Positions 21,689 to 54,306 of a stretch of DNA of 64,000 nt are shown piece by piece. Position 1 is the stretch's first letter. Each line of letters starts with the position of its first letter. The notes beneath the pieces were generated by a model. It saw only the letters and a program-made list of their open reading frames with translations, was not told where the DNA came from and searched no databases. The stretch lies in sequence record DRR723986_5691; one strand, written 5' to 3'. The position numbers were made by a program, and so were the translations under genes.

Positions 21689-21773
21689 TGGTGCCCCCCG
21701 CCGGAATCGAACCGGCACTCCCGAAGGAACCGGATTTTGAATCCGGCGCGTCTACCAGTTCCGCCAGGGGGGC
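21689..21773 (-). tRNA. tRNA-Leu(CAA)
   Basis: GCCCCCC...GGGGGGC-ACCA acceptor stem, anticodon arm CCGGA-TTCAAAA-TCCGG, long variable arm, GGTTCGATT T-loop; 85 nt. Confidence 0.97.
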
Positions 21774-29226: not shown

Positions 29227-29468
29227 CATCACAACACCGCGCCGGGCAATATCCGGTCCATTCGGCCGGCCTCTCGGCCCGGGTCGCCCGCATTTACCAA
29301 TTCCACCTGAAAGGCGTGCGGTTTTCAGATATACTTCCTAGAGTGGAATTGCATTCCGTTTCGTTCCTTATTGCCTTGCGGTCGCCCGTTGTCGCGAAAC
29401 CTCTATGCAGCGGTCCGTACCCCGCCATTTCACTGCATTGACCGGCCTTGAACCCATGGAGTGGTCTG

Positions 29469-31847
29469 ATGAAGAAACCCGGCATTTATTCAACTTTCTT
29501 GATGCTTCCGGCGATGGCCGCAGGTTGTCTTGCAATCGACAACGCCCTGGCAGCCGACGGCCCCATTGGAGCAGAGGATGGACAGGTTACCCTTCCCTAT
29601 GCGGAGCAGAAGTTTCGCGGTGATGTGGGCACGACCTATCTGAACGCAGCACCGGCCGAGTTTCCTGCGGCCGTATCAGCTCCCGAAGGAGCTCCCAACG
29701 TGCTCCTGATCCTGCTGGATGATGTCGGTTTCGGGCAGTTCTCCGCCACTGGCGGCGGAGTGCCGTCACCGGCGATGGACAAGCTTGCCGAGGAAGGCCT
29801 GACCTTCACCCGCTTTCACACAACAGCGCTTTGTTCCCCAACCCGGGCAGCACTGTTGACCGGGCGAAACCACAACGTTGCCGGCACCGGTGTCATCACC
29901 GAACTTGCCACAGGCTATGATGGCTATACCGGCATCATTCCGAAAGACACCGCCTCGGTTGCCGAGATCCTGCGCCAGAACGGCTATGCGACAGCCTGGA
30001 TCGGCAAGAACCACAACACGCCGATCTACGAGACAAGCGCGGCAGGCCCGTTCGACCGTTGGCCGAACGGCCTTGGCTTCGACTATTTCTACGGGTTCAT
30101 GGCTGGCGACACCAATCAGGTCCGTCCTTATCTTTTCGAGAACCAGACGCCGATCGGAACGCCGGACGGGGACGACTATTACCTCAGCACCGATCTCGCC
30201 GACCAGACGATCAACTGGCTGAAGACGCTGGAAGCCATTCAGCCAGGCAAACCCTGGTTCGCCTATCTGGCACCGGCTGCAACTCATGCGCCGCACCAGG
30301 CCCCCAAGGAGCTGATCGACACATTCAAGGGCAAGTTCGACATGGGTTGGGACGCTTATCGCGAGCAGACCTTCCAGCGCCAGAAGGACATGGGGATCAT
30401 TCCCGAAAACACCGAGCTGACCTCCCGCCCGGGCAGCCTGCCCGCCTGGGACAGCCTGAACGACGACCAGAAGAAGCTCTATACGCGGATGATGGAGGTC
30501 TTTGCCGCCTACGGCCAGCAGGTCGACCATGAAGTCGGACGCGTGCTCGACTATGTGGCCACATTGCCGGATGCCGAAAACACGATGATCATCTACATCG
30601 TCGGCGACAACGGGGCGTCCGCGGAAGGCGGCTTTGACGGCACCTTGAACGAGAATGCCTTCTTCAACGCCTATCTGATGACCACCGACGACATGCTGAG
30701 CCGGATGGACGAGATCGGCACGCAACTTCATTTCAACCACTTCCCGGCCGGCTGGGCCTGGGCGGTGGATGCGCCCTTCCAGTGGACGAAGCAGGTAGCA
30801 AGCCACCTGGGCGGCGTACGTAACCCGATGATCGTGAAATGGCCTGCCCGCTTCTCCGGACAAGGCGAAACGCGGACGCAGTTCCTGCATGTCATCGACA
30901 TTGCCCCGACCATCCTCGAAGCGGCCGGCATTCCAGAGCCGCGCAGCGTCAACGGAACAACCCAGACACCCATCCAGGGCAAGAGCTTCCTGAGCACGCT
31001 GGACGATGCCGGGGCCGAAGAAGTCCGAACCAGCCAGTATTTCGAGATGTTCGTGAACCGGGGCATCTACAAGGATGGCTGGTGGGCCGCTTCCCTGGCG
31101 TTCGAACCCTGGGATCCCGTGCGCGGCGCGTTCGATCCCTTCAAGGCCAAATGGGAGCTTTATGATCTCGATGAAGATTTCAGCCAGGCACGGGACATTG
31201 CTGCGGACAACCCGGACAAGCTTGAAGAGCTGAAAGCCCTCTGGTGGGCGGAAGCTTCCGCCAACAAGGCTCTGCCGCTGGACTGGCGCGGGGCTGAACG
31301 TTTCAGCGCGGAGGAAACCGGCAAGCCGAACCTTGCCGGCGATCGCACGAGCTTCACCTACGCGGGCGTTCTTGCAGGACTGCCGGAATCCTCGGCGCCA
31401 GACCTGAAGAACAAATCCTTCTCCGTAACCGCCCGCGTCAACATCGAGGACAACGCCAACGGCATGATCTTCACCCAGGGCGGGAACACCGGAGGCTGGG
31501 CGTTTTATCTCAAGGACGGCAAGCTGAAGGCGGCCCACAACTATATCGATGTTGCGGTCTATTCCGTTGAAAGCGATGGCACGGTTCCGGCCGGCGAGCG
31601 CGAGCTGAAGATGGACTTCACCTATGAGGGCGGCGAGGAAATGGGCAAGAGCGGCACCTTGACCCTTTCCGTCGACGGCAGCCCTGTCGGCACGGGTCAG
31701 ATCGCACAGACCACTCCGTTCAAATACTCGCTGTCGGAAAACCAGGATGTGGGAACAGACACCGGAACGGCGGTCACGACCGACTATCAGGCGCCATTCG
31801 ATTTTCAGGGAGAGCTTGAAGAGGTTGTCGTGGACCTGAAGAAATAG
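29469..31847 (+). CDS. Arylsulfatase (Cys-type, exported) with C-terminal beta-sandwich domain
   Basis: PNVLLILLDDVG, CSPTRAALLTGR, GKNH, THAPHQ, GDNG; signal peptide. Confidence 0.92.
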   Translation: MKKPGIYSTFLMLPAMAAGCLAIDNALAADGPIGAEDGQVTLPYAEQKFRGDVGTTYLNAAPAEFPAAVSAPEGAPNVLLILLDDVGFGQFSATGGGVPSPAMDKLAEEGLTFTRFHTTALCSPTRAALLTGRNHNVAGTGVITELATGYDGYTGIIPKDTASVAEILRQNGYATAWIGKNHNTPIYETSAAGPFDRWPNGLGFDYFYGFMAGDTNQVRPYLFENQTPIGTPDGDDYYLSTDLADQTINWLKTLEAIQPGKPWFAYLAPAATHAPHQAPKELIDTFKGKFDMGWDAYREQTFQRQKDMGIIPENTELTSRPGSLPAWDSLNDDQKKLYTRMMEVFAAYGQQVDHEVGRVLDYVATLPDAENTMIIYIVGDNGASAEGGFDGTLNENAFFNAYLMTTDDMLSRMDEIGTQLHFNHFPAGWAWAVDAPFQWTKQVASHLGGVRNPMIVKWPARFSGQGETRTQFLHVIDIAPTILEAAGIPEPRSVNGTTQTPIQGKSFLSTLDDAGAEEVRTSQYFEMFVNRGIYKDGWWAASLAFEPWDPVRGAFDPFKAKWELYDLDEDFSQARDIAADNPDKLEELKALWWAEASANKALPLDWRGAERFSAEETGKPNLAGDRTSFTYAGVLAGLPESSAPDLKNKSFSVTARVNIEDNANGMIFTQGGNTGGWAFYLKDGKLKAAHNYIDVAVYSVESDGTVPAGERELKMDFTYEGGEEMGKSGTLTLSVDGSPVGTGQIAQTTPFKYSLSENQDVGTDTGTAVTTDYQAPFDFQGELEEVVVDLKK

Positions 31848-31901
31848 CGTTTCGGCGGCTCCGACCGATTGTCATCAACATCCGGATACCAGGCCGGTGG
31901 G

Positions 31902-31957
31902 GATCAAGTGCCCGAGATCAAGCGCCAGGGATCAAGTGCCGGGGATCAAGCGCCGGG
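31902..31957. repeat. 14-bp tandem repeat, 4 copies
   Basis: GATCAAGTGCCCGA / GATCAAGCGCCAGG / GATCAAGTGCCGGG / GATCAAGCGCCGGG. Confidence 0.9.
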
Positions 31958-33221: not shown

Positions 33222-34385
33222 ATGACCGTCTCGCGATTGAAGGACATTCCGGGAATTGGCGTGGACAAGATGGGACAGGCCGCCGATGACGCCGGAAATT
33301 CCGACATGCTTCGGCTGGAGAACCTGGATACGGACCTTCGCCCGCCGGAGGAGGCGCTGGAAGCAACGCTGGCTGCCATCGGCCGGGATGACGCCAACAG
33401 CTATTTGCCGTTCCTGGGCACGAATGACATCCGCAGGGCCGCAACCAGCCGGATATCGGCCACCACCGGCCAGCCCTACGACTGGAATACCCAATGCGTC
33501 ATTTCGGCGGGCGGCCTGTCCGGCATCCTCAATGCCCTGCTGGCAATTCTGGAGCCGGGCGACGAGGTCATCATCACCGATCCCGCCTATGCGGGCCTGC
33601 TCAACCGCATCCGCCTGGCCGGCGGCGTTCCGAAGCTGGTGCCGCTAAGGGTGGTCGACGGCGGTTGGCGTATTGATCTGGAAGAACTGCGCCGCGCAGC
33701 CAGCGCCAGAACCCGGGCCGTTTTGACCATGAGCCCGTCCATGCCGACAGGCATCGTCCACACGGCCGAGGAATGGAACGCCATTGCGGAAGTCGTGATG
33801 CACACCGGCGCGTTCCTGCTGCATGACGCCGCCATGGAGCGTCTCCTTTACACCGGCAAGCCGGTGATCCACCCGGCCAGCCTGGATGGCATGGCGGAGC
33901 GCACGATAACGGTGGGCTGCGTTTCCAAGGAATACCGGATGATCGGCTGGCGGGTCGGCTGGACGGTCGGCCCCGCCCCGATCATGGCGGACATCGGCCT
34001 TGTCAGCCTCACCAACGTCGTCTGCCAGGTCGGCATCGCAATGCCGGGCGCCGCGGCCGCCATCACCGCGAAAGACGACGGCATCGCCGCCGCAACGGCA
34101 ACCTGGAAAGCCCGCCGGGACATCATCCTGCAGGCACTGTCGGACCTGCCCGTCGTGCGCCCGGATGGCGGCTGGTCGCTGCTGATCGACACCGCCGAGC
34201 TTGGCTACTCCCCGGTGGAAGCCTCCCGGTTGCTGTTCGAAAAGGGGCGGATCGCGGCAACACCGATGACCGGCTGGGGCAGCGAGGACATCGCCGGACG
34301 CTACCTGCGTTTCGTCTTCGCCAACGAGCCGGCAGAAAGGCTCGGCGATATCCGCGAGCGGTTGCGCCTCGCCTGGCAGGTCTGA
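33222..34385 (+). CDS. Class I/II PLP-dependent aminotransferase
   Basis: SKEYRMIGWRVG, PSMPTG, YLRFVF; AAGGA RBS. Confidence 0.88.
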   Translation: MTVSRLKDIPGIGVDKMGQAADDAGNSDMLRLENLDTDLRPPEEALEATLAAIGRDDANSYLPFLGTNDIRRAATSRISATTGQPYDWNTQCVISAGGLSGILNALLAILEPGDEVIITDPAYAGLLNRIRLAGGVPKLVPLRVVDGGWRIDLEELRRAASARTRAVLTMSPSMPTGIVHTAEEWNAIAEVVMHTGAFLLHDAAMERLLYTGKPVIHPASLDGMAERTITVGCVSKEYRMIGWRVGWTVGPAPIMADIGLVSLTNVVCQVGIAMPGAAAAITAKDDGIAAATATWKARRDIILQALSDLPVVRPDGGWSLLIDTAELGYSPVEASRLLFEKGRIAATPMTGWGSEDIAGRYLRFVFANEPAERLGDIRERLRLAWQV

Positions 34386-34524
34386 CGGTACCGCGCCAGC
34401 CTCGACACCTCAGGAAAGCCCTGCCCGGGCTTTCTTCTTCTCTCACGTTCTACCCCCGGTTCGCACCGGTTTCATCACCCCGCTTGTGCCCAAAGGCACA
34501 GCTTTCCTCGAAAGGACGAAAGAC

Positions 34525-34905
34525 TTGACCACCCGCATCCCAACCCTGGCCGCCTGGCTGTTCCGGCTTGCTGCTCTCTGGATGCTGATCGGACTGGTGC
34601 TCGGCATCGTCATGGCGGCAAGCCATGACCACGCGCTCTCGCCGGTTCATGTGCACACCAACCTTCTCGGCTGGGCAACCCTGGCCCTGACCGGGCTCCT
34701 CTACACGGTAATCCCGGCCATGGCGGACAACAGGTTTGCCCGCCTGCACGTCTGGCTTCATGCGCTTGGTCTGCCGGTGATGATGGCGGCGCTGGCCGCC
34801 TATGCGCTTGGCCATACGGCGATGGAACCCGTCATCGCGGTTGGTGCGATCGCGGTCACCGCCGGGCTTGCCTTTTTCACGGTCAACCTGTTCCGGACGC
34901 TTTGA
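34525..34905 (+). CDS. Small 4-TM His-containing membrane protein
   Basis: AAAGGA RBS then TTG; GIVMAASHDH, PVHVHTNLLGW. Confidence 0.7.
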   Translation: MTTRIPTLAAWLFRLAALWMLIGLVLGIVMAASHDHALSPVHVHTNLLGWATLALTGLLYTVIPAMADNRFARLHVWLHALGLPVMMAALAAYALGHTAMEPVIAVGAIAVTAGLAFFTVNLFRTL

Positions 34906-35104
34906 CCGGACGGGTTTCACCCAACTCGCCAAAGTTCCGTGTCCGGGGCCCGCAGTGGCAACACTGCGGGCCATTTCCGTTTGCCGACGAACCGGCACAC
35001 AATCGCCGGCCTGTCTTGACAGCGTCAGACCTGGCCGTCCCTATATCACCAGTTGTGCCGGGGACGACTCGGCACCCCATCGGCAAACCGCAAGGAGACG
35101 GCGC

Positions 35105-36172
35105 ATGAAGATCGGCAAGACCACGGTAACGGCAGCCTGCGCATTGGCCATCGCCTCGTCTGGCCTGCTGGCGCCACGCCTTGCGGATGCCTGCACCCGG
35201 GTGGTCTATCTCGGTGCCAGCGAGCAGGTGATCACCGCCCGCTCGATGGACTGGAAAACCGATGTCGGCACGAACCTCTGGCTGTTCCCGCGCGGCATGA
35301 AGCGCAATGGCGAGGCCGGTGAAAACTCCCTGGAATGGACCTCGAAATACGGCAGCGTGATTGCCTCCGGATACGACATTTCAACGACCGACGGCATGAA
35401 CGAAGCCGGGCTTGTCGCCAATGTGCTGTGGCTGGTGGAATCCGAGTATCCAGAATACGACAGCTCCAAACCCGGCCTGACAATCGCCGCCTGGGCGCAA
35501 TATGTGCTCGACAATTTCGCAACCGTTGAAGAGGCCGTCCGCGCGCTGGAGGCCGAACCCTTCACCCTCTTCAGCGACAATGTTCCAGGCGAAGAACGCC
35601 TCGCCACCCTGCACCTGTCCCTGTCGGATGCAAGCGGCGACAGCGCCATCGTGGAATATATCGGCGGCAAGCAGGTGATCCACCACAGCCGCGCCTACCA
35701 GGTGATGACCAACTCGCCCACCTTCGAAGAACAGCTGGCTCTGAACCAGTACTGGAAGGAAATCGGCGGCACTGTCATGTTGCCGGGCACCAACCGTGCT
35801 GCGGACCGCTTTGCCCGCGCATCGTTCTATGTCGACGCCATCCCGAGAACCGAAAGCCCGGTCGAAACGATTGCCAGCGTCTTCGGCGTCATCCGCAATG
35901 TCTCTGTGCCGCTCGGCATCACCACGCCAGACCAGCCGAACATCTCCTCCACCCGCTGGCGCACCGTCGCCGACCAGAAGCGCAAGCTCTACTTCTTCGA
36001 ATCCGTGGTGACCCCGAACATCTTCTGGATCGATTTCAGCCAGGCCGACTTTTCGCCGGAAACCGGCAAGGTCATGAAACTCGACCTCGGCCCCAACCAG
36101 ACCAACATCTACTCCGGCATGGCCAACGCGCACTTCCAGGAAGCAGAACCGTTCCGGTTTCTGGGGCGGTAG
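35105..36172 (+). CDS. Linear amide C-N hydrolase (choloylglycine hydrolase / penicillin V acylase family)
   Basis: Signal peptide then ADA|CTR nucleophilic Cys; ARSMDW, DGMNEAGL, MTNSP, DRFARA. Confidence 0.9.
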   Translation: MKIGKTTVTAACALAIASSGLLAPRLADACTRVVYLGASEQVITARSMDWKTDVGTNLWLFPRGMKRNGEAGENSLEWTSKYGSVIASGYDISTTDGMNEAGLVANVLWLVESEYPEYDSSKPGLTIAAWAQYVLDNFATVEEAVRALEAEPFTLFSDNVPGEERLATLHLSLSDASGDSAIVEYIGGKQVIHHSRAYQVMTNSPTFEEQLALNQYWKEIGGTVMLPGTNRAADRFARASFYVDAIPRTESPVETIASVFGVIRNVSVPLGITTPDQPNISSTRWRTVADQKRKLYFFESVVTPNIFWIDFSQADFSPETGKVMKLDLGPNQTNIYSGMANAHFQEAEPFRFLGR

Positions 36173-36199
36173 GACGCGGGAAGGGCTGCTTTGCGTCGT

Positions 36200-36365
36200 C
36201 AAGGCGGACTATCACTGGTTTTCGGTCCGATCTGCAAAGCCACCGTTCGTTGCGCTACGCACGAAGGTTCATAGAGGGCGGGAAGCGGTCTTTCGTTGCG
36301 GATCGCACGAATGGCGGCAATGCGGACAGAACAGTGATTGGCGTTTCTGACACGACGGCTGCTTA
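36200..36365. repeat. Degenerate hairpin repeat cluster 1 (left edge of the AT-richer island)
   Basis: TTCGTTGCG-NNN-CGCACGAA twice (36246-36265, 36292-36311); 36282-36313 matches 38874-38905 at 22/32 ungapped. Confidence 0.7.
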
Positions 36366-36458
36366 CCAAATTTCGCGACGACAGCAAAAACAGTAGGGGC
36401 AAAATCAGAGCTTCGAAATTTAGCAATATTTTGGGAATTGAGTGCTGATTTGCACCAC

Positions 36459-37715
36459 TCAATTTGAATCCCCATGGTTCCGTTTCTTGGGGAACGCAGG
36501 AAACAGATTCTTCTGGACGGTTACTCTTACGACATCTTCGTCCTGGATAGATGAGCGGCGCAAGTGACCGGCCTGCGTGAACACTTCAATGTCTTGATTT
36601 TCGATCAACACTTTCTTTAAGTCGTCTGAATGGATCGTCGTGTCGTTGTAAATAGATGCCTTTAACATACCGACTGTTATTGTATCGCCGAATTCAGCAA
36701 TAAATTGCGGCAGGTCGTTATGGAGCGCCGCCACATTCTTCGGGCGCATGTCGCTGCCCCAATCGAGAGTACCGAGGCCGCTATCATCGCTTCGATAGTC
36801 AAGCATTTTTAAACCCGATTTACCAAAATGCGCCTGCCCACCAGCATTGAGATGCAAAACGTCGTTGTAGACTTCTCTTGCCCGGTGGCTCTTCGAGAAA
36901 TGCATAAGCCAGTAATTGTAGCCTGTATTGTTGGCGCGATTGATCGCAAAGGGGCTTACGTAATTCGCGATATTGAGAACTTCTCCATGTAAAATGCGCT
37001 CAACGGCGCCAAGCCATTCGCCTTTGGTGCGCAGCGCTTCATCACCAAAGAACTGATCTTGTTTGACCCCAAAGTCTGTGATCAGTTTGTGCGTTTTCTG
37101 AGGATTGTTCCAGGAAGAGTAGTTGAGTAAGGCACCGATCATGAAGGTGAAGAACACTTCCGGATTCTTGAAGGAAACGACTATGTCTTGAATCGTTTGC
37201 AGTCCCACCTGCGTGTATCCGCAGGGATCAAGGTTGAACAAAACATTGGAATGCTTGGTCTCGAGGATTCGTCGCTTGATATCTCCGTAAACTTCTTCAA
37301 ACCTCCTTTCAAGTCGAACAATAGTGACCTGAAGTTTGTCGTTTCCTGCGTGTTCCTCTTGCCAAGCAGACAAATGCGGCCCCAGAGTCTGCCAAGCGTC
37401 ACTGGAATTGTCGTTGACGATAAACAAGCATTCTATTTCTAGATCGGGCAAGCCCTGATCCTTGCGCCAGATCGTGGTCTCATCTAGAAAACTGGCCAGT
37501 TCTTCCAAAAAAACAAGCGGGGAACCGGAAGCTCCACCTTCATAGACGCCGCCTCCGGCCATACCATCGACAATGGCGATTCTGAACCGACGATTCAGCG
37601 GAGTGCACTTTACCCGAAGATAGTTGTGAAAATACGAGCGTAGAATGTCGAGCTTTTTTCGCGTGTGATCTTCGAGAACAACGCCTGAAGGCCAATCGTA
37701 TTCTTTTTTTGCCAA
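36459..37715 (-). CDS. tcmP: Three-Cys-motif partner protein (TcmP-like; predicted SAM-dependent methyltransferase fold)
   Basis: HTRKKLDILRSY, IVDGMAGGG, LFNLDPCGY; directly downstream of the DUF5131 gene; TTG start; atypical codon usage. Confidence 0.8.
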   Translation of the reverse strand: MAKKEYDWPSGVVLEDHTRKKLDILRSYFHNYLRVKCTPLNRRFRIAIVDGMAGGGVYEGGASGSPLVFLEELASFLDETTIWRKDQGLPDLEIECLFIVNDNSSDAWQTLGPHLSAWQEEHAGNDKLQVTIVRLERRFEEVYGDIKRRILETKHSNVLFNLDPCGYTQVGLQTIQDIVVSFKNPEVFFTFMIGALLNYSSWNNPQKTHKLITDFGVKQDQFFGDEALRTKGEWLGAVERILHGEVLNIANYVSPFAINRANNTGYNYWLMHFSKSHRAREVYNDVLHLNAGGQAHFGKSGLKMLDYRSDDSGLGTLDWGSDMRPKNVAALHNDLPQFIAEFGDTITVGMLKASIYNDTTIHSDDLKKVLIENQDIEVFTQAGHLRRSSIQDEDVVRVTVQKNLFPAFPKKRNHGDSN

Positions 37716-37752
37716 AGCCTAATTTCCCAATTTCCCGAGAGATTGTATTTTC

Positions 37753-38529
37753 TCAGAAACTTGCCTGAACTGGCATCTCGTCCCAGGTGCGTCCCCGATA
37801 TTGGCGCCCATTCAACTTTTTTGAGCGTCGCTTGTTATCTTTTCCCCAAGTGCCCCATTGCTTGAAGAAAAAAGCTGTCTCGCTAACACGGCATGCGTCA
37901 TGAATTTCATCTATCCAAGCTTCTTTGATTGGTCGTGCGCGCGAACCACTTTCACCACCAACAATCGCCCAGTGAATGTCGGTAAGATCAATTTCACCTA
38001 CGCTGGCGATAAGAGGTTCAAAGGATATGAACCGAATGGCTGCCGGTACTCTGCGCAGGTCATCAATTCGCGCACCCACCACTTCACTTTCAACGCTGGT
38101 GCCCAACCAGACATTCCGCAGTGGTTCAGTTTGAATACTGGGAACAATTTCTGCCATTCTGTCGGGTCGTTTTGTCAAAATCTGATAGTGATGATGCGGT
38201 GTTCGAGCCATCACGCTCCAGACTTCCTCGATGAAGCTGCTCGAGACACTCGGGTGAAACAGATCGCTCATGGAGTTTACGAAGATCTTCCGAGGCTTTT
38301 TCCATCGGACAGGAATTTCCAATGAAGCACGGTCTTCACGAACGGCACCGTTCCAGATCCTTCGACCACCCGACTTACGCGTCAGCCCGGAATACTTATC
38401 AACCCCCATTGCCTCAAGCCGGTAAGCCATCTGCATCGCATAGCAGTTCGTACAACCTGCGGACATGATGTTGCAGCCCGCGACAGGGTTCCAAGTCGCG
38501 TCAGTCCATTCAATTTCCGTCTCGGCCAT
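37753..38529 (-). CDS. DUF5131 (phage Gp37/Gp68) family protein, radical-SAM-like
   Basis: IEWTDATWNPVAGCNIMSAGCTNCYA (Cx6Cx2C), IFVNSMSDLFH, LTKRP, WAIVGGESG, FFFKQWG; GAGG RBS. Confidence 0.92.
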   Translation of the reverse strand: MAETEIEWTDATWNPVAGCNIMSAGCTNCYAMQMAYRLEAMGVDKYSGLTRKSGGRRIWNGAVREDRASLEIPVRWKKPRKIFVNSMSDLFHPSVSSSFIEEVWSVMARTPHHHYQILTKRPDRMAEIVPSIQTEPLRNVWLGTSVESEVVGARIDDLRRVPAAIRFISFEPLIASVGEIDLTDIHWAIVGGESGSRARPIKEAWIDEIHDACRVSETAFFFKQWGTWGKDNKRRSKKLNGRQYRGRTWDEMPVQASF

Positions 38530-38869
38530 TTGGCGCCTCATGCAGTCACTTGAAGATCCACTAAAACGCACAACGACATTTGCACGCAATAGTTCGACCA
38601 CCATTTATCGGTGTAGGGACCAGAAATCTCTACTCAATGAGATCAACATCAAGCGGTGATTTTGCAATGCTAAAATTTGATTGCCACTGTGGCGCTAGAA
38701 CTCGATTCTGGTTGCCAGCTTGTACGTAAACGAACGACAACTATTGGAAAGCCCGTGGATTTATTCAAAGAAGTATGAAAAATCCGGTAAGGGCCAATCG
38801 TTACCTAGGCCCACGTCAGCGTTCTGCGGTTCCTTACAGTTTGTGCTAACTTCAGCATTTGACCTTTGC

Positions 38870-38965
38870 GTTTGAAGCGTACCTCCGCTGCGCGAAGCAC
38901 CAATGTCTCGTTAGGGCCGGTATCGCCAGCGCATCCGCAACCGATGGATGTCAGCTAAACGCGAT
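38870..38965. repeat. Degenerate repeat cluster 2 (between the cargo modules)
   Basis: 38874-38905 resembles cluster 1; 38914-38963 matches 40417-40466 at 38/50 ungapped. Confidence 0.75.
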
Positions 38966-39299
38966 TCTAGAAGACGAGCAGACAGTCCGCTCCCGGCCCC
39001 ATAGAGGTCATTTTCTATCCTCCTGGTCGCTCCAAAATTTTGCCCCGAGCGGATTCTGTCGAGGTCAACGTCCTGCCACGACTGCGGGGAGCAAGGAGAG
39101 ATACAAACCACCATTTGTTTCCCGGATGTATTGGCACAGATTTTCTCTGACCCTGTCGATGGACGCACTGGCCTCACAATGATGACCAGATGGCCTCTCG
39201 TGAAACTGTTGTCCCCAAACTCGTTGCTAAGCTGCGCTCAAGAAGGCAACATGGTTGTCATAGGCTTGTGGAGATAACATTGCGACGCTGGGAGATATT

Positions 39300-40184
39300 A
39301 TGACAACTGACGAGCGTTTTGCACATGCCGCCGATTTACTGGTGAAGATTGCTGCATTTGCAGCTTCGCCAACTCTTGTGACTTTCGGTGCCGCATCAGC
39401 TGGCGGCTATCTAAATCTGAAGGCTTTGGTTGGCCTTGTAAAAAGTACTGACCTTGCCAGCCTTGTCGAAGAGGACTTGCGACGAGGGCTAAATGTTCCC
39501 GGCACCGAATTACCCGATGATGCGGATGTACTATTTTTTCAAATGCTAGAGTTTGGTGCTCCCAACTTACGCGATCTTGTGGAGTTGGACCTTTCCCCGG
39601 AGCGCATTGCGACCCTTATCTCTCACCGAGCGGACGGTCCAGACTACTCAGTTCCAGGACTACGTTCTTCCTTTGAGAGCTGGATTATTCCTCCGCTGAC
39701 AACCCTCCTCAATGACTCTGAATTTATTGCTTCACTTGCGCCAGATATCACCCGCAGGACGCTAGAAAGCCTTACGGCGATCGGCCTTGGAATAGAGACC
39801 TTGCAGCTAAATGGAGACGAGTTGCGGGTAGCTTTGGCCGAAACGACCGCTCTAGTTAAGAGCATCGATCAGTCAGTCACCGCAATTCGATCCGGAAAGC
39901 GTGATGAAGAAGGCGTCGAACCGGACTCCGACACCTCAGTTACCCACATTCTCGCGGCACGCATCGCTTTAGGAACCTACTCGGACGACGAAGTTCGGGA
40001 GATTCGCAGAAGATTGGAGGACTGCAAAAAACAATTCATGATGACCTTCCAAGGAAAGAACCGGGCAGTTTGCCTGTGTTTCGTTCTTGAGCAGGTGAAA
40101 GATGGCAATGGCGGAACACTACCCGATCCCGATTGGCAACGCGACTACAGCCAACTTGGCTGCGACAACAATTTAGCGCGATAA
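39300..40184 (+). CDS. Hypothetical protein (orphan, atypical codon usage)
   Basis: GGGAG RBS, 294-aa ORF in an AT-richer region; C-terminal 4-Cys domain. Confidence 0.75.
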   Translation: MTTDERFAHAADLLVKIAAFAASPTLVTFGAASAGGYLNLKALVGLVKSTDLASLVEEDLRRGLNVPGTELPDDADVLFFQMLEFGAPNLRDLVELDLSPERIATLISHRADGPDYSVPGLRSSFESWIIPPLTTLLNDSEFIASLAPDITRRTLESLTAIGLGIETLQLNGDELRVALAETTALVKSIDQSVTAIRSGKRDEEGVEPDSDTSVTHILAARIALGTYSDDEVREIRRRLEDCKKQFMMTFQGKNRAVCLCFVLEQVKDGNGGTLPDPDWQRDYSQLGCDNNLAR

Positions 40185-40244
40185 CTGAACTGGACGTTCC
40201 GGGGGATTGGTAGATTTCTTACTTGCCATAATCTTCCGTTTCAG

Positions 40245-40480
40245 CCACCGGCACAAACGACCATTTCCGCCCGCTATCGAGAGCAGACCTCTGTCCAACG
40301 ACCGTTTGGTCCCGCACAGTGAGCCTTGGCAAGAGTGCAGACAACGCAGCCGCAGCGCATGGCCGGTAGGACCGGTCGCAACGCAGTCTGCAATTTGACT
40401 GATGAACGGCAGCTTTGGGCCGGAATTGCCAACGCATGCTGGACCAACGAATGTCGGCTAAACCCGTTCGAGGCACGTAA
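40245..40480. repeat. Degenerate repeat cluster 3 (right edge of the island)
   Basis: Contains the 50-bp match to cluster 2, AACGGCAGCTTTGGGCCG, AATGTCGGCTAAAC, and a TGCAGAC...GTCTGCA stem (40336-40392). Confidence 0.7.
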
Positions 40481-40744
40481 CCCGACAATCCGCCTTCCGC
40501 CCCCCAAATCTACCAGTCGGCAAAGCGCCCCCCGGCTTACCGCTTTACTGGAACCGCCTCATAAAATTTCCTCACATTCCCTTACGTTAATTCTTGCATT
40601 ACCGCACACATCGGCCCACTATCCAGAGCAGTTACTTGTCATACAAAGCCCTGTGACGCGCCATTTCTTGTGCGCTTCAAAGCAAAAGAAAGATGTGCCT
40701 GCTGAAGGCATTCAAGGCGCGACAGTCGATCTGGAACCTGACGT

Positions 40745-41593
40745 ATGCCAATTACCTTCGCACCTCGTATCGCCATGTTCGGCTTTGACGCCACGGCCTC
40801 GCCCAAGTGGCAAATGGTGCCGAGGGGGTGGGAGCGCACGATTGTGGTGCGGGGGGCAGGTGCCCTAATTCCCGAATTGACCCCCAACGACATTGCCAGG
40901 GTCACCTATCGCCGTGTCGGCGCCGAACATCATCTGACGCTCAAGGGCCTCAAGGCTGGCAAGGGGTTTGTCCGCTTTGTGCCGAATGCCGGGTTTGCGG
41001 GGCCTGTTCCCAACAGCGACATTCTGGAAATCTCGGTCAAGACCGAGGTCAAGATCAACACGGCGTTTCACTATGTGAAGGACAACGCCGGCCACAAGAC
41101 CAACCGCAACATGGGCGACCTCAACGCCCTGATACGGGGCGTCAACCGGCTGCTGGACACCCAGGCCAACGTGCGGATGTACAGAAAGAGCGCACGCACG
41201 ATAACGGTTCCACAGAACCTGGGCGCCACGGTACGGTTTTCCAGCCACCTGGCGGGCGTTGCGGCCGCCGAACATGAATGGGACGATGTCACGGCCTTTG
41301 CCGATGCTGCCGCGGATTTCAATGTCTTCTTCGTGTGGCAGTATGAGCAGGATGCGACGCCTGCGGTCAACAACACCCGGGCCGGAACTCTGGCCGCCGA
41401 GAAGAACTGCCTGATGCAAGATACGATCACCGGCTCGACCCATGCCGAAACCCTGGCACACGAGACCATTCACCTGCGCGGCATCGGCCCGCACAGCGGA
41501 ACCGCAACACACCTGATCGCCAGTGGCGCGGTGCGGACGGGGCAGCTGATTTCGCGCGCCCAGGCCAACATCATCAATCCGTCGGGCACATAA
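40745..41593 (+). CDS. Hypothetical protein with a zincin-like HExxH motif
   Basis: TLAHETIHLRGIGPH near the C-terminus; beta-rich N-terminal half; no signal peptide. Confidence 0.72.
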   Translation: MPITFAPRIAMFGFDATASPKWQMVPRGWERTIVVRGAGALIPELTPNDIARVTYRRVGAEHHLTLKGLKAGKGFVRFVPNAGFAGPVPNSDILEISVKTEVKINTAFHYVKDNAGHKTNRNMGDLNALIRGVNRLLDTQANVRMYRKSARTITVPQNLGATVRFSSHLAGVAAAEHEWDDVTAFADAAADFNVFFVWQYEQDATPAVNNTRAGTLAAEKNCLMQDTITGSTHAETLAHETIHLRGIGPHSGTATHLIASGAVRTGQLISRAQANIINPSGT

Positions 41594-42492
41594 TGGTTCG
41601 ACACCGCAACCTGGCCGGATGCATCGCAGGGGCGTTTCTGTTCACCTGGCTTGCAGGAAGCACTATGGCAGACGACATGAACCTTGAGGCAGAGATCGAC
41701 ACCGCGCTGGCCGGAGGCTCGCCGGAAGCTGTGGTGGAGGCAGGCCCGGCCGCCGTCGCTCCCCTGGCCGCGCGCCTGGCTGCGGCGAAGACCGCCGGGG
41801 AAAAATCGGCCCTGGTGGATCTGCTGTCCGCCGTCGGTGGTGCTGACGCCTTGGCGCCCGTCTTGCCCTATATCAGTGATGCCGACCCGGACCTGCGCGC
41901 ACGCGCCAGCGCCGCAGCGCTGAAAGTCGTGCTGGCCAATGGCCCACCGTCTGGCCCCGTCGCCGAGCAGCTTCAAACCGAAGTATTAACGGCGCTGAAA
42001 GCGCCGGACGCGGAAGGCGGCGTGTTGCTGCTGGGGGCACTGGCACCCGGAGCGGAAGACGCGCTTGAAGCTCACCTCTCCGGCACACGCCTGGTCAAGG
42101 CACAACCACAGGAGCCCACGGCCCCCGCAGCCCTGGCAGCCCGGCTGGCGCTTTCGGCCTTGGGGGACGATGAAGCGCGAACCAGCCTCTTGAAGCAAAT
42201 CCCCGAGGCCGAGCCGGACAGTCTCGTCTTCATGCTGAAAGCCTTGCCCCTGATTGACGCGCCCGAAGTTCTGCATGCCCTGGCCGCAACCACCCTTTCC
42301 TCAGACGCCCCCGTCGCGGACGGTCTGCCAAGCGGAGCGGAACCCGCCCGGGAGGTGGCCGACGTCGCGGTCGAGGCGTTTGTCGCGCGCCTGAACCTAA
42401 CCCCTGGCTTCAAGGTGACGCCGGGCACCATCTACACGGCAGACCAACGGGCCGAAGTGGAAAGGCTCATCACGGGCTCCATCCCGAACTAG
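41593..42492 (+). CDS. Hypothetical exported Ala/Leu-rich helical (HEAT-repeat-like) protein
   Basis: TAATG overlap with the upstream gene; signal peptide ending TMA|DD; LPYISDADPDLRARASAA resembles a HEAT repeat. Confidence 0.72.
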   Translation: MVRHRNLAGCIAGAFLFTWLAGSTMADDMNLEAEIDTALAGGSPEAVVEAGPAAVAPLAARLAAAKTAGEKSALVDLLSAVGGADALAPVLPYISDADPDLRARASAAALKVVLANGPPSGPVAEQLQTEVLTALKAPDAEGGVLLLGALAPGAEDALEAHLSGTRLVKAQPQEPTAPAALAARLALSALGDDEARTSLLKQIPEAEPDSLVFMLKALPLIDAPEVLHALAATTLSSDAPVADGLPSGAEPAREVADVAVEAFVARLNLTPGFKVTPGTIYTADQRAEVERLITGSIPN

Positions 42493-42614
42493 ACAAACCA
42501 GTCTTCCAACTCTCTTTTTCGCCCCTGATACTTCAGCCCAGGACAATTGGCCGGATTTTACATTAACGAAAGGTCCCATCGGTAAACTGGAGAAAACCTT
42601 CCAGAGACGAGAAA

Positions 42615-43409
42615 GTGATGCCGTCTTCCAGTAACGCCGCTCTCGAAATTCTCAATCTTCACAAGCGTTTCAGCGAACCCGCAGTCAACGATCTCTCGTT
42701 GAAGGTGCGGGAAGGCGAATTCTACGCCTTGCTGGGCCCCAACGGTGCGGGCAAAACCACCACGCTGCGCATGGTCGCCGGCCTGCTTCAGGCCGATGCG
42801 GGGGCGGTCAGGGTCTGCGGCATCGATGCGTTTGCGGATCCGATTGCCGCCAAGCAGGTTCTGGCCTGGGTTCCGGACGAACCCATGGTCTACGACAAGC
42901 TGACGCCGCTTGAATATCTCGAGTTCGTGGCAGGCCTCTGGAGCATGCAGCCGGACCTTGCAAGGTTCAAGGCCGACAGCCTTCTGGAAGCCTTCGGACT
43001 TGCCCCCCATGCCAATGAGCGCTGCGGCGGGTTCTCGAAAGGCATGCGCCAGAAGGTGGCGCTTGCCGGAGCCCTGATCCATGAACCGCGCCTGATCATC
43101 CTCGATGAACCGCTCACCGGCCTTGATGCAGGCTCTGCCCGCCAGGTGAAGAAGGTGCTGACCGGGCTTGTCGCGCAGGGCGTGTCGATCATCATGACGA
43201 CCCATATCCTGGAGGTGGCGGAGCGCATGGCCGACCGGATCGGCATTATCGCCCGCGGACAGCTTGTTGCCGAAGGAACGCTGGAAGAGCTGCGCCAACG
43301 GGCAAGTGCCGGCGGCCATTCCCTGGAGGACATTTTCCTGGAAATCGTGGGCGGCGATGCCGGCGCACATGCGAACACGGCCGAACTCCTTGATGAGAAG
43401 GTGGCATGA
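42615..43409 (+). CDS. ABC-2 type transporter ATP-binding protein
   Basis: GPNGAGKTT, FSKGMRQK, ILDEPLTGLD. Confidence 0.92.
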   Translation: MMPSSSNAALEILNLHKRFSEPAVNDLSLKVREGEFYALLGPNGAGKTTTLRMVAGLLQADAGAVRVCGIDAFADPIAAKQVLAWVPDEPMVYDKLTPLEYLEFVAGLWSMQPDLARFKADSLLEAFGLAPHANERCGGFSKGMRQKVALAGALIHEPRLIILDEPLTGLDAGSARQVKKVLTGLVAQGVSIIMTTHILEVAERMADRIGIIARGQLVAEGTLEELRQRASAGGHSLEDIFLEIVGGDAGAHANTAELLDEKVA

Positions 43410-50186: not shown

Positions 50187-51311
50187 ATGTATGTAGCCGT
50201 AAAGGGTGGTGAAAAGGCCATCCGCAACGCTCACAAGCTCATGGCCAAGCGCCGCCGGGGCGACACCTCCGTCCCCTCGCTGACGCTGGAGCAGATCGCC
50301 CAGCAGCTGTCCCATGCCGTTGCCCGTGTCATGGGCGAAGGTTCGCTCTACGACGAGATGCTGGCCGCGCTTGCCATCAAGCAGGCGCGCGGAGACCTGA
50401 TCGAAGCCGCGTTTCTGATGCGTGCCTACCGCACGACCCTGCCACGGTTCGGCTACAGCCAGCCGATTGACACCGCGAAGATGCTGGTGGAACGGCGCGT
50501 TTCAGCCACCTACAAGGACCTGCCAGGCGGCCAGGTGCTGGGCCCGACCTTCGACTACAGCCACCGCCTTCTGGATTTCGCGCTGGCCGCCGAAGAGGAC
50601 GGTCTCGAAAAGCCTGTCGAAACAGCTACCGCTGAAGAAGGCAGCATGCCGCGCGTCACCGACCTGCTTGGCGACGAAGGCCTGATGGAGCCGGACCCGG
50701 TAACTGACGAGGACACGCCCGTCGGCGACCTGACCCGCGAGCCCCTGTCCTTCCCGGCCGATCGGGACCTGCGCCTGCAGAACCTTGCCCGTGGCGACGA
50801 AGGCTTTCTGCTGGCATTGGCCTATTCCACCCAGCGCGGCTACGGCCGCACACACCCCTTCGCCGGCGAAATCCGCTACGGCGAGGTCGAAGTCGAATTC
50901 TTCGCCGAGGAACTCGGCTTTGCCGTGACGCTCGGTGCCATCAAGGTGACCGAGTGCCAGATGGTCAACCAGTTCAAGGGTTCGGCCAAGACCGCCCCAA
51001 CCTTCACCCGGGGTTACGGCCTCGTATTCGGGCAGGTGGAGAGAAAGGCCATGTCCATGGCCATGGTCGACCGTTCCATGCGCTGGCAGGAACTGGGCGA
51101 GGAACAGTCCGCCCCGGCTCAGGATGTCGAATTCGTCCTGTCCCATTCAGACAACATCCAGGCGACCGGTTTCGTCGAACACCTGAAGCTGCCGCATTAC
51201 GTCGATTTCCAGGCCGAACTCGATCTGGTGCGCCGGATGCGCGGCGAATGGTTCGAAAAACGCCGCCAGGAAGAAGAAGAGGGCAGCACCGCCCAGGAGG
51301 CGGCGGAATGA
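50187..51311 (+). CDS. phnI: C-P lyase subunit PhnI
   Basis: MYVAVKGGEKAI, GFVEHLKLPHYVDFQAEL. Confidence 0.96.
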   Translation: MYVAVKGGEKAIRNAHKLMAKRRRGDTSVPSLTLEQIAQQLSHAVARVMGEGSLYDEMLAALAIKQARGDLIEAAFLMRAYRTTLPRFGYSQPIDTAKMLVERRVSATYKDLPGGQVLGPTFDYSHRLLDFALAAEEDGLEKPVETATAEEGSMPRVTDLLGDEGLMEPDPVTDEDTPVGDLTREPLSFPADRDLRLQNLARGDEGFLLALAYSTQRGYGRTHPFAGEIRYGEVEVEFFAEELGFAVTLGAIKVTECQMVNQFKGSAKTAPTFTRGYGLVFGQVERKAMSMAMVDRSMRWQELGEEQSAPAQDVEFVLSHSDNIQATGFVEHLKLPHYVDFQAELDLVRRMRGEWFEKRRQEEEEGSTAQEAAE

Positions 51312-51736
51312 GCAGCGGACTTAGTCATATGACGTTCATCGTCAGTGATCTCGACAGGATGACGAACCTGCTGACGACGGTACTTGGAGCCCGGGAAGTC
51401 TACTCCAGTGAAGAGGCCACCTTTTCCCTCTCCCAGGAAAAGTTCTTTCTGGTCGGTGACGTCTGGATCGCGATCATGCAGGGCGAAGCCCTGAACGAGC
51501 GCACCTACAATCACGTGGCTTTCAAGATCGAAGAGGAAGACTTCGACACGAAGCTGGCAGCCGTCGAGCGCCTTGGCCTGGAAGTCAAACCACCACGCGC
51601 CCGCGTCGAAGGTGAAGGCAGGTCCATCTACTTCTACGACAACGACAATCACCTGTTCGAGTTGCACACCGGAACGCTGGACATGCGCCTCGACCACTAT
51701 CGCCGGATACTCAGGGAACGGAGTGCTGCGCAATGA
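51308..51736 (+). CDS. fosX: FosX-family fosfomycin hydrolase (VOC superfamily)
   Basis: GLSHMTFIVSDL, FSLSQEKFF, TYNHVAFKI, RVEGEGRSIYFYD, FELHTGTL; ATGA overlaps with phnI and phnJ. Confidence 0.9.
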   Translation: MSSGLSHMTFIVSDLDRMTNLLTTVLGAREVYSSEEATFSLSQEKFFLVGDVWIAIMQGEALNERTYNHVAFKIEEEDFDTKLAAVERLGLEVKPPRARVEGEGRSIYFYDNDNHLFELHTGTLDMRLDHYRRILRERSAAQ

Positions 51737-52662
51737 ACGATACGGCTCAGATTTTCGAACAGGGCGAATACAACTTCGCCTATCTGGACGAGCAGACCAA
51801 GCGCATGATCCGCCGGGCAATCCTGAAGGGCATCGCGATACCGGGTTACCAGGTGCCTTTCGCCTCGCGCGAAATGCCGATGCCCTATGGCTGGGGCACC
51901 GGCGGGGTGCAGGTCACGGCGGCAATTCTGGGCAAGGACGATTGCCTGAAGATGATCGACCAGGGCTCCGACGACACCACCAACGCGGTTTCCCTGCGCG
52001 GTTTCTTTGAAAAGACCGCCGGCGTGCGCACCACCTACGAGACATCGGAGGCAAGCGTCATCCAGACCCGCCACCGGATTCCGGAAAAGGCCCTGCGCGA
52101 AGACCAGATCATCGTCTTCCAGGTGCCGATTCCCGAGCCCCTGCGCTTCCTGGAGCCACGCGAAACCGAGACCCGGAAGATGCATGCGCTCGAGGATTAC
52201 GGCCTGATGCATGTGAAGCTTTACGAGGATATCGCCAAGAACGGCCATATCGCCACCACCTACGCCTATCCGGTGAAGGTCAACGACCGCTACGTGATGG
52301 ATCCTTCGCCGACGCCGAAGTTCGACAACCCGAAGATCGACCAGATGGCGGCGCTTCAGCTTTACGGTGCCGGGCGTGAGAAACGCATCTACGCCATCCC
52401 GCCCTACACCAAGGTGAAGAGCCTCGACTTCGAGGACTATCCTTTCGAGGTGCAGAAGTTCGACAAGCCCTGCGGCCTGTGCGGTGCGGAGAATGTCTAT
52501 CTCGACGAGGTGATCCTGGATGACAAGGGCGGGCGCATGTTCGTCTGCTCCGACAGCGACTATTGCGAGGAACGGCGCGCGGACGGTCATCTCGGCCCGA
52601 TGGCGGCGGATCCGGCGGCGCACCAGTTCGGCGCCACCCAGGCAGAGGAGACCGCCCGATGA
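51733..52662 (+). CDS. phnJ: C-P lyase catalytic subunit PhnJ
   Basis: YNFAYLDEQTKRMIRR, YGWGTGG, CGLCG...FVCSDSDYC. Confidence 0.97.
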   Translation: MNDTAQIFEQGEYNFAYLDEQTKRMIRRAILKGIAIPGYQVPFASREMPMPYGWGTGGVQVTAAILGKDDCLKMIDQGSDDTTNAVSLRGFFEKTAGVRTTYETSEASVIQTRHRIPEKALREDQIIVFQVPIPEPLRFLEPRETETRKMHALEDYGLMHVKLYEDIAKNGHIATTYAYPVKVNDRYVMDPSPTPKFDNPKIDQMAALQLYGAGREKRIYAIPPYTKVKSLDFEDYPFEVQKFDKPCGLCGAENVYLDEVILDDKGGRMFVCSDSDYCEERRADGHLGPMAADPAAHQFGATQAEETAR

Positions 52663-53447
52663 ACGCCTTTCCGTCCGCGGACCCGCTGCTGCAGGTTCAT
52701 AACGTCACCCGCTACTATGGCGACCGCATCGGCTGCGCCGATGTCTCCTTCGATCTCTGGCCCGGCGAAGTGCTGGCCATCGTCGGCGAAAGCGGCTCCG
52801 GCAAGACCACATTGCTCAACTGCCTGTCGACACGTCTCGCCCCGACGGCGGGAGCCATCGAATACCGCATGCGTGACGGCACCATGCGCAACCTCTATCA
52901 GCTGACCGAGGCCGAGCGCCGCCTGCTGATGCGCACCGACTGGGGGTTCGTGCACCAGAATGCTGCGGACGGGCTGCGCATGAACGTTTCCGCTGGTGCC
53001 AACGTCGGCGAAAGGCTGATGGCGGTTGGCGAGCGCCACTACGGCAACATCCGCTCCACCGCCGACGACTGGCTGGGACGGGTGGAAATCGACAGCGACC
53101 GGATCGACGACGATCCGCGCTCGTTCTCCGGCGGCATGCGCCAGCGCCTGCAGATCGCCCGCAACCTCGTCACGAGACCACGGCTGGTCTTCATGGACGA
53201 GCCGACAGGCGGTCTGGACGTTTCCGTGCAGGCACGTCTTCTCGACCTCTTGCGCCGTCTGGTGGCCGATCTCGGACTTTCCGTGGTCATCGTCACCCAC
53301 GACCTTGCGGTCGCCCGGCTGCTGTCCCACCGGATCATGGTGATGCGCCACGGCAACGTCATCGAAAGCGGCCTGACGGACCAGGTTCTCGACGATCCGC
53401 GCGAGCCCTATACCCAGCTGCTTGTTTCTTCCATTCTCCAGGTATGA
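52659..53447 (+). CDS. phnK: C-P lyase ATPase PhnK
   Basis: GESGSGKTT, RTDWGFVHQ, FSGGMRQRLQIARNL. Confidence 0.95.
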   Translation: MNAFPSADPLLQVHNVTRYYGDRIGCADVSFDLWPGEVLAIVGESGSGKTTLLNCLSTRLAPTAGAIEYRMRDGTMRNLYQLTEAERRLLMRTDWGFVHQNAADGLRMNVSAGANVGERLMAVGERHYGNIRSTADDWLGRVEIDSDRIDDDPRSFSGGMRQRLQIARNLVTRPRLVFMDEPTGGLDVSVQARLLDLLRRLVADLGLSVVIVTHDLAVARLLSHRIMVMRHGNVIESGLTDQVLDDPREPYTQLLVSSILQV

Positions 53448-54160: not shown

Positions 54161-54197
54161 GCCACGAGATGAGGAAAGGCTTGCAGACGGGCGGAAA

Positions 54198-54215
54198 CTG
54201 TCACAGAAAAGTCAC
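54198..54215 (+). promoter_or_regulatory. Putative PHO box (PhoB site) inside the phn cluster
   Basis: CTGTCAC-AGAA-AAGTCAC, 11-bp period, against consensus CTGTCAT-N4-CTGTCAY. Confidence 0.65.
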
Positions 54216-54306
54216 CGCCCGCCTTTAGGTCACTCCCTCAGAAAGTTGAAGGATGTGGCCCTGCCACATCCCGGCCAAACCACATTTCAAAATCGCGATT
54301 TTCTTC

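Follow-up and report, generated by a model that had tools for sequence, protein, structure and literature searches.

Repeat modules and variable cargo at a low-GC island in a 64-kb sequence probably from Roseibium

Mosaic non-coding modules that carry a short core and lie at the edges of variable cassettes are known from Neisseria, as NIME/dRS3 and the 'minimal mobile elements', where the core is also the insertion site of a specific mobile element and exchange proceeds without a local recombinase. Small units, often toxin-antitoxin genes, that lie between inversely oriented sites are known from Acinetobacter plasmids as pdif modules, and the Xer-type recombinase associated with these is a plausible actor in the present case too. 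Here we describe an island of low GC content at about 36200–40600 of a stretch of 64,000 nucleotides (nt) from sequence record DRR723986_5691, hereafter called the window, whose genus is probably Roseibium, a name taken from plasmid matches. In this island two units of foreign genes, the cargo, lie among copies of two repeat families, modules A and B, and of a third module, C. Judged by analogy, the behaviour of these modules appears to resemble most that of the Neisseria mosaics with their minimal mobile elements and that of pdif modules; a limited literature search returned no account of repeats of this kind from Roseibium or Labrenzia, and none of a repeat-targeting element of IS91 type with an integrase.

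The comparison with Neisseria has its limits, as the sequences, the genus and the targeting element all differ, the last being here an insertion sequence (IS) of the IS91 family with a Xer-like integrase (Int), and as there are far fewer copies, a single defence system often makes up the cargo and natural transformation is not known from this genus. With pdif modules the likeness includes two genomes (G026 and G023) in which a toxin-antitoxin pair lies between inverted copies of B, but the present modules measure 100–150 nt rather than 28 nt and are mainly chromosomal; the enterobacterial dif core, which may not be that of the host, had no match in the window at up to three mismatches. Integron cassette arrays, including attC arrays without an integrase, share with the island the order repeat-cargo-repeat-cargo-repeat, the common orientation of the B copies, promoter-poor accessory or defence genes and the lack of a recombinase nearby, whereas the modules have neither an attC-type fold nor conserved end motifs and occur singly at many loci and in both orientations. 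The integron integrase model TIGR02249 gave no match over its cutoff in four genomes (G001, G062, G003 and G056) and none among the 46 open reading frames (ORFs) of the window.

REP and BIME sequences of E. coli and RIME sequences of rhizobia are likewise non-coding, intergenic and mosaic and receive specific IS inserts, but they number hundreds per genome as against 3–26 copies of A and 1–9 of B, and the present modules lack a stable conserved palindrome and show a strong link to low-GC cargo; Y1/RAYT transposases (PF01797) were found in none of the same four genomes by a search whose control matched six of 14 known genomes. Gene capture by IS91 and ISCR elements is called to mind by an IS91-family transposase physically linked to the modules and by one moved unit with a sharp and a ragged end, although here the modules are targets of the IS rather than its ends and most islands hold neither the IS nor a remnant of it. 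Islands associated with tRNA genes are unlike this one, in that the window has no integrase and its only tRNA (21689–21773) is 14 kb away from the island.

Cargo turnover at the window locus and at two further hotspots

The low-GC island with its foreign genes is genuine: GC content at about 36200–40600 is 0.46–0.55 as against 0.60–0.69 in the flanks, which agrees with a preliminary description of this sequence, and the two cargo units named there (DUF5131-tcmP and an orphan gene) were confirmed, with family assignments for the first and no family for the orphan. On balance we think it probable that the segment at about 36314–40404 is the present content of a strain-variable exchange hotspot in a chromosome, delimited by module A on the left and by module B in the middle and on the right, the modules being the substrates of exchange. 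The features of the island and its borders are as follows.

34802..36172, plus strand: left flank, choloylglycine-hydrolase-family (CBAH) gene (Pfam PF02275, E 6.8e-46)
36181..36332, plus strand: module A, about 150 nt (nhmmer E 5.7e-42)
36459..37715, minus strand: cargo 1a, three-Cys-motif partner protein TcmP (TIGR04474, 160.6 bits, cutoff 53; PADLOC PDC-M30A, E 2.1e-24)
37753..38604, minus strand: cargo 1b, DUF5131 (Gp37/Gp68-type) protein, partner of TcmP (PF07505, 332.5 bits; PADLOC PDC-M41B, E 5.7e-101, and PDC-M30B, E 1.8e-94)
38874..38905, plus strand: stretch resembling an A sub-repeat (22/32 to 36282–36313; 69% to the reference copy of family D1)
38901..39003, plus strand: module B, middle copy, between the two cargo units (nhmmer E 8.5e-21; row win_M of alignment A1)
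39300..40184, plus strand: cargo 2, orphan gene of 294 amino acids (aa), without Pfam, NCBIfam or PADLOC family
40282..40400, plus strand: module C, a dispersed repeat often directly upstream of B (BLAST matches in loci L003, L055, L058, L004/L017 and L054)
40402..40503, plus strand: module B, right copy, at the right island edge (nhmmer E 5e-27)
40745..41593, plus strand: right flank, conserved gene without Pfam family (96% identity to G001; covered by runs X4, X6, X8 and X14)

Comparisons were made with one genome per species, apart from four sequencing runs, using loci picked by following matches; G001, the nearest genome, and other representative genomes served for this. Five relatives (G001 and the runs X4, X6, X8 and X14) keep both flanks without the cargo of the window. 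The left flank is present in 18 public runs from 13 studies, and the four that were compared over 34000–43000 all have contigs covering the CBAH gene. G001 is 98% identical to the window across the left flank, including the CBAH gene, as far as 36313 and 96% identical from 40405 (to 43000), with 3,892 unrelated bases in between that carry three other genes, for a DUF3800 protein and for proteins of 310 aa and of 588 aa, the last with a GGACT/AIG2 domain. A single contig of X4 links 36301 to 40561 across 7,867 other letters, and one of X8 links 36282 to 40503 across 3,994. The contigs of X14 depart from the window at exactly 36313 and 40417 and beyond these points are unlike both the window and G001; in X6 the left-flank match stops at 36301, and another contig has an inverted 36262–36299 beside 40561. 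Parts of 36408–40320 without cover in X6 and X14 were not counted; as evidence we used the contigs of X4 and X8 that join both flanks, together with the loose contig ends of X14. The locus is therefore occupied by at least four different contents, those of the window, of G001, of X4 and of X14.

Breakpoints within A lie at 36282, 36301 and 36313, all in the last 30 nt of its 3' end at about positions 105–135, and those on the right lie at 40405, 40417, 40503 and 40561, all between the start of B and 58 nt past its end. That strain breakpoints would fall in or beside the repeats had been anticipated, and this was borne out in all five relatives and at two further hotspots. The window and G001 are identical in A at 141 of 141 positions (36173–36313), and their right copies of B share 86% identity over 40405–40555 as against 96% over 40405–43000.

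At the second hotspot, defined by the flanks of locus L125, G062 and G069, G056, G038 and G066 differ in content and the 5' core of A is kept in all. G062 and G069 have A, 2.4 kb at GC 0.40–0.45 and then B; G056 has the IS, 3.3 kb and a partial B; G038 has fragments of A and 8 kb; and in G066 what remains of the modules, around 4.5 kb of low-GC DNA, is some 16 nt from the start of A and 25 nt from the end of B. At the third hotspot, which follows the left flank of locus L124, G001 and G003 (flanks 96% identical) both have an A...B arrangement with different cargo, namely Dsr1 in G001 as against DUF4365, SieB and two IS110-family transposases in G003, and neither module is present in five more distant species (G050, G063, G016, G013 and G030), homology to the first two of which stops exactly at the start of A. 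Content thus varies between close relatives, one cargo having repeatedly taken the place of another while the bounding modules stayed the same.

The association of the modules with low-GC cargo was also seen across the nearest genome, where 25 module matches represent 20 sites: a lower-GC flanking 1-kb window below 0.55 GC was found at 14 of these sites and at 8 of 119 evenly spaced control positions, and one below 0.53 GC at 11 of the 20 and at 1 of the 119, some module sites sharing one island. The earlier suggestion that the repeats border low-GC accessory genes is upheld by these counts. In the mapped regions the modules sit at GC transitions, with two recurring layouts, A(+)...cargo...B(+) and A(+)...cargo...A(-), the first of which was found at no fewer than eight loci, as listed here.

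The window
G001 4.02 Mb (L124) and the same locus in G003
G056 2.08 Mb (L123) and 6.287 Mb
G062 5.05 Mb (L125) and its G069 orthologue
G025 1.10 Mb (L126)
The R. aggregatum plasmid (L087)

A cluster at 530–610 kb of G056 was considered as a regular cassette array and found not to be regular, and a duplicated 867-bp stretch of the same genome, considered as an A...B block, proved to be a single paralogous gene without a module at its edges.

The modules, a moved unit and an insertion sequence that targets them

In the preliminary description the three spacers around the cargo were assigned to one degenerate family of hairpin repeats. The island repeats are instead two non-coding families, A and B, together with the third module C. 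The modules were delimited by aligning copies obtained from searches of 72 genomes of the genus (alignment A1 for B and A2 for A), and because the resulting profiles find exactly one copy of A and two of B in the 64-kb window, the three spacer clusters represent two families. The proposed relationship therefore stands for the middle and right spacers, whose B copies (length about 105 nt) share an orientation, and falls for the left spacer, which belongs to A. Module A contains two sub-repeats of about 29 nt at a spacing of 46 nt (36237–36265 and 36283–36311, family D1). Of the two matches on which the single family had been based, that between 38914–38963 and 40417–40466 (38/50) exceeds the best of 30 shuffles (30/50) and joins two copies of B, and that between 36282–36313 and 38874–38905 (22/32) was equalled in 1 of 30 shuffles, so that the first is genuine and the second no better than chance; the stretch at 38874–38905 is also missed by the A profile at E<5.

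Apart from a site of about 50 nt, called S below, A and B have in common only a short core-like motif at their edges. This core (AAYGNCNGC), noted in the preliminary description as recurrent, is not distinctive alone, with 55 matches in the window as against 29.8 ± 5.4 expected, mostly in coding DNA. The case for hairpins is likewise weak: RNAalifold gave no consensus structure shared on either strand for A or B (three pairs for B in both runs and six for A on the plus strands, none on the minus strands, with no compensatory changes), and folds of single DNA copies had z scores from +0.53 to -2.97. The modules are thus conserved by sequence and not by structure. They are non-coding, intergenic and mosaic, being joined in several orders and orientations, and one match to the window (L003) runs at 77% through C and B jointly. 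Origin as a coding remnant was considered and rejected, since the modules lack a 3-base periodicity (p 0.81 and 0.68) and none of their reading frames is consistently open, and so was a role of B as a one-sided boundary, the adjoining 1 kb being under 0.55 GC on the 5' side in 15 and on the 3' side in 13 of 21 copies. The preliminary description had named remnants of a known IS or an ordinary REP family as a refuting alternative, but the repeats are not remnants of the IS described below, which has no similarity to the islands, and are not high-copy REPs; an Rfam search of 35000–42000 gave no match at E<=1. A degenerate B(-) directly after A in G001 and X14 was noted by eye and is undetected by the B profile.

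The left-spacer query (A) matches 40 of the 72 genus genomes and the right-spacer query (C and B) 17 of them. In complete genomes the numbers of A and B copies at E<=0.01 are 17 and 9 in G001, 9 and 4 in G062, 3 and 1 in G025, 3 and 2 in G033, and 26 and 4 in G056. In a search across the order, B was found in 2 of 151 genomes (101 genera), G001 and G170, and is thus nearly restricted to the genus of the window. The sequence in G170, which belongs to another family (G170:C15:1168-1268), is B-like with E 1.2e-7 and may reflect transfer or a chance match.

An all-against-all comparison of loci yielded one recurrent cargo, a unit of about 935 bp that comprises B from about position 13 and two small genes, annotated in the plasmid record as a Phd-family antitoxin and a hypothetical protein, the partner being about 140 aa long. 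This unit is present at 88–95% identity and with unrelated flanks in four species (G026, G023, G015 and G028), in part in G039 and at 78% on the plasmid, with copies at the following positions.

L053:~650-1590
L063:~655-1590
L054:~1560-2500
L056:~620-1550
L087:9000-9829

In six aligned copies the shared sequence begins at one point, GGGCCGG..., directly after a core that is specific to each copy, and on the plasmid the end of an IS abuts this same start; the other edge is ragged, G023 and G015 sharing about 150 nt more. A whole A...B block was not seen at two loci, and this unit, which in the aligned copies has a defined end, is the sole direct evidence that a module-bearing unit moves.

Next to B on the R. 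aggregatum plasmid lie two genes annotated as a site-specific integrase and as a transposase of the IS91 family, the latter with 425 bits on NF033538. For the integrase the highest scores came from the models of Xer and integron integrases, though below every cutoff. The transposase occurs in 13 of the 72 genus genomes, with 11 matches in G056, and modules adjoin the IS in 18 of 25 IS loci, the other seven being the short contig L090, L095, L096, L098 and three copies in G003. Seven near-identical copies in G056 define an element of 2,525 bp with a gene similar to Xer and integron integrases upstream of tnpA. The copies are as follows.

L101:466-2990 (G056), with L094, L106, L109, L111, L112 and L113: the seven copies of the 2,525-bp element
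L114-L117 and L096: variant 2
Plasmid, ~L087:6400-8997: plasmid copy

All seven of the G056 copies lie, in the same orientation, at one fixed point of seven different and diverged copies of A, after ...GCTTTGCGCCCCCAW and before.TCGGACGTTC, at model positions ~23|24. All five copies of variant 2 interrupt B at the homologous point, which is read on the other strand and falls between ...GGGGCCGRAG and ..AGCGGACTGG. These matching insertion points indicate that a site of about 50 nt, S, is common to A, in its 5' part, and to B, in its 3' part, and is the target of the IS; the 5' part of A in the window would accordingly be an S-type target, the fixed point having been seen in other copies of A. 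The modules are targets of the IS and not its ends: the boundaries of the element are set by seven and five near-identical copies, its ends have no match to A or B, and the weak A/B matches in the G003 copies fall within the int ORF. IS91-family transposases require a target of only 4 nt (CTTG or GTTC), and base-exact targeting far beyond 4 nt suggests a wider recognition, possibly via the integrase. A fixed, enzyme-driven insertion point within the modules and the mobility of a B-containing unit are thus both seen in the genus. The idea that a recombinase gene would co-occur with the repeats is in part sustained by this pairing of an IS91 transposase with a Xer-like Int, though not for Y1/RAYT, given its absence from the four genomes searched.

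How the cargo may be exchanged

The feature is real and non-trivial, a repeat-bounded exchange hotspot with a testable candidate enzyme. If the modules are the substrates of exchange, incoming DNA with module copies of its own would replace the resident cargo, or join it, at the modules. It is conceivable, though we lean somewhat against it, that module-plus-cargo units would be seeded at new sites by an enzyme, which could be the transposase of IS91 type or the accompanying integrase, either of them working in trans, or some other enzyme with a defined end; that homologous recombination between modules, serving as portable homology arms, would then swap cargo among strains is a step for which we see the balance as even. 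Coincident junctions argue for a defined, enzyme-made end: one is the 5' core of B, where the toxin-antitoxin units, the end of the IS and the breakpoints of G001 and X14 coincide, and another is the point 23|24 of A, used by seven IS copies and close to the divergence of G066 from G062. The scattered boundaries in A, both module orientations and the IS missing from G001 argue for homologous recombination between modules. We infer that both kinds of step are at work in the exchange of the cargo itself.

Several results weigh against this account. Six of the 20 module sites in G001 have no adjoining low-GC DNA, the module sites and the genomes are related so that the counts are not independent, and some bounded segments do not look foreign or defence-like, L071 encoding HupE, a rotamase and DUF3604 at normal GC and L123 holding IS630 fragments, DUF1254/1214 and an AraC-type gene, all non-defence. 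The IS91 transposase had no match in G001, the nearest genome, at E<=1e-20, nor was the Xer-like Int found there; no IS remnant was seen in the window or in 11 other island loci, and the IS has no similarity to the islands. The swap boundary within A lies at about 16–23 at the second hotspot, at about 48 at the third and at about 105–135 in the window, and since it varies by locus there is no single crossover point. At none of the three hotspots could a clean unoccupied site be read: synteny with G003 is lost directly after the stop codon of the hydrolase gene at the window locus, all lineages are occupied at the L125 hotspot, and the right flank of the L124 hotspot is unmatched. No excised or circular form of the cargo was seen, and no enzyme was shown acting on it.

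The coincident junctions could also be explained by a site-specific gene-capture platform in which the cores of A and B are sites for a tyrosine recombinase, such as the Xer-like Int, that acts in trans and would cut and join cassettes there in the manner of an integron, though with another site and another enzyme. The place where the 5' core of B gives way to GGGCCGG is at once the edge of the toxin-antitoxin unit, the end of the plasmid IS and the place of the G001 and X14 breakpoints (40405 and 40417), the point 23|24 of A is used by all seven IS copies with G066 diverging from G062 nearby (~16–23), Int scores best against the models of just such enzymes (Xer and integron integrases), and the two B copies of the window share an orientation. 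However, the distance of the junctions from the core differs and within A they fall at more than one place, neither such an Int nor tnpA was found in G001 or in the window, the right edge of the toxin-antitoxin unit is ragged and not at a site, the modules have no conserved fold, and their two orientations and mixed orders are unlike an ordered cassette array; we regard this explanation as unlikely. We are similarly doubtful of its widest form, a cassette-exchange platform of Roseibium's own, distinct from integrons, in which the site of about 50 nt in A and B would be read by a Xer-like recombinase, an IS91-family transposase or both, and single defence systems or toxin-antitoxin pairs, packaged between modules of this kind, would be inserted or swapped in trans wherever a locus bears a module; were it true, the chromosome would be a distributed, integrase-free bank of defence cassettes. 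The 'undescribed gene-capture system' with a recombinase in trans, put forward in the preliminary description, is for these reasons possible but unproven: the results on low GC, on breakpoints and on kinship to the IS found here and to REPs are favourable and a candidate enzyme pair exists, but there are two or three families rather than one, the boundaries vary within A, and G001 has no IS91 transposase.

The varying boundaries within A would also be expected of an ordinary transfer hotspot, at which turnover takes place by homologous recombination in the flanking genes and A and B are incidental intergenic mosaic repeats that build up where insertions are tolerated and happen to be a favoured IS target. 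Hotspots without an integrase are a common feature between core genes, repeats are known targets of certain IS elements, A is fully identical between the window and G001 as resident flank DNA would be, and the modules share their non-coding, intergenic character with REP, BIME and RIME sequences. Yet in each of the five other strains the breaks fall within A or else at B or close to it, and not in the 2-kb flanking genes that were also compared, and B is less similar than the flank between the window and G001 (86% against 96%), as if it had come with the cargo. A B-containing unit has moved between species with a sharp edge, the A(+)...cargo...B(+) layout recurs at no fewer than eight loci, and distant species lack both modules at the third hotspot; we consider an ordinary hotspot of this kind unlikely.

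It is quite improbable that A and B form the left and right ends of non-autonomous transposons, the A...B blocks, mobilised in trans by the IS91-family rolling-circle transposase through one-ended or read-through events, given that the IS ends have no similarity to A or B, that the IS interrupts A in all seven copies instead of ending with it, that S sites from the two ends of one island resemble each other no more than S sites from separate islands do (a comparison that also gave no support to co-evolving terminal inverted repeats within an island), that A is resident and identical in strains with different cargo and that the same A...B block was never seen at two loci, even though the toxin-antitoxin unit has one sharp and one ragged edge with the plasmid IS abutting the sharp one, homology to distant species at the third hotspot stops exactly at the start of A, and rolling-circle transposases that miss their terminator take adjacent DNA along, as a passage of PMC5714925 describes.

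Defence systems gather in hotspots, and how they enter and leave those without a recombinase is an open question, which the shared bookends and the candidate enzyme pair acting at a fixed base make testable in a harmless marine bacterium. With at least four cargos at one locus in close relatives, it can be asked directly whether RecA, the IS91 transposase or the Xer-like integrase is needed. The A and B profiles are in addition a practical means of finding variable defence islets in the genus.

Cargo of other module-bounded islets and neighbouring genes

Modules bound small islets, often with a single defence or toxin-antitoxin system. PADLOC gave matches in seven of 11 scanned segments, and the defence-type cargo was of the following types.

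PDC-M30/M41 (the window)
Dsr1
IetAS
CBASS-type cyclase with TGT
Type II restriction-modification
PD-T4-6-like kinase
Aga_REase-type domain

The type II methylase and restriction enzyme are accompanied by Vsr (assigned from Pfam), and toxin-antitoxin genes and ImmA/IrrE-HTH pairs are also among the module-bounded cargo. In G001 a full-length Dsr1 with a SIR2 domain is the only gene between A and B (L124:4963-8787). At about 4.45 Mb of the same genome pairs of modules enclose a CBASS-like set (QueC-like, TGT and oligonucleotide cyclase) together with a gene that has a RelA/SpoT domain (PDC-S33; L073:7783-13459), within a module-rich region of lower GC and about 45 kb (4.41–4.46 Mb). The A...B block of the R. 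aggregatum plasmid (NZ_CP045620.1) includes genes whose annotations name DUF6527, an adenylyltransferase of the ThiF family and a protein with a multiubiquitin domain (L087:1084-3940), and which by these annotations look like a ubiquitin-like defence set. One module locus (L077) adjoins tRNA-Met and an integrase.

In the window itself the adjacent genes for TcmP and the DUF5131 protein match both family models of the PADLOC candidate systems PDC-M30 / PDC-M41, and may be regarded as a candidate defence pair. TcmP is matched in only 2 of the 72 genomes of the genus, at 28% identity in G045 and weakly in one other, and the orphan has three weak matches only (E>=1.8e-4) in the same set, and because these are so few the movement of the window's cargo within the genus cannot be traced; the best Atlas feature score of the orphan (0.84) is no more than a lead. 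Domains of integrases or transposases were found in none of the 46 window ORFs of at least 150 aa, which together with the distant tRNA agrees with the first reading of this sequence, and promoter-like and terminator-like sites in 36100–40800 were not above chance, with none inside a module.

On the right flank the two conserved genes at 40745–42492, of 282 and 299 aa, belong to no family of Pfam, NCBIfam or PADLOC. The stretch 29488–31941, most of a sulfatase gene (29448–31847), is missing from the otherwise syntenic region of G003 and constitutes a second indel of the window. At 50187–56198 the window carries an ordinary phosphonate (C-P lyase) cluster with PhnI, PhnJ, ABC ATPases, DUF1045 and an amidohydrolase.

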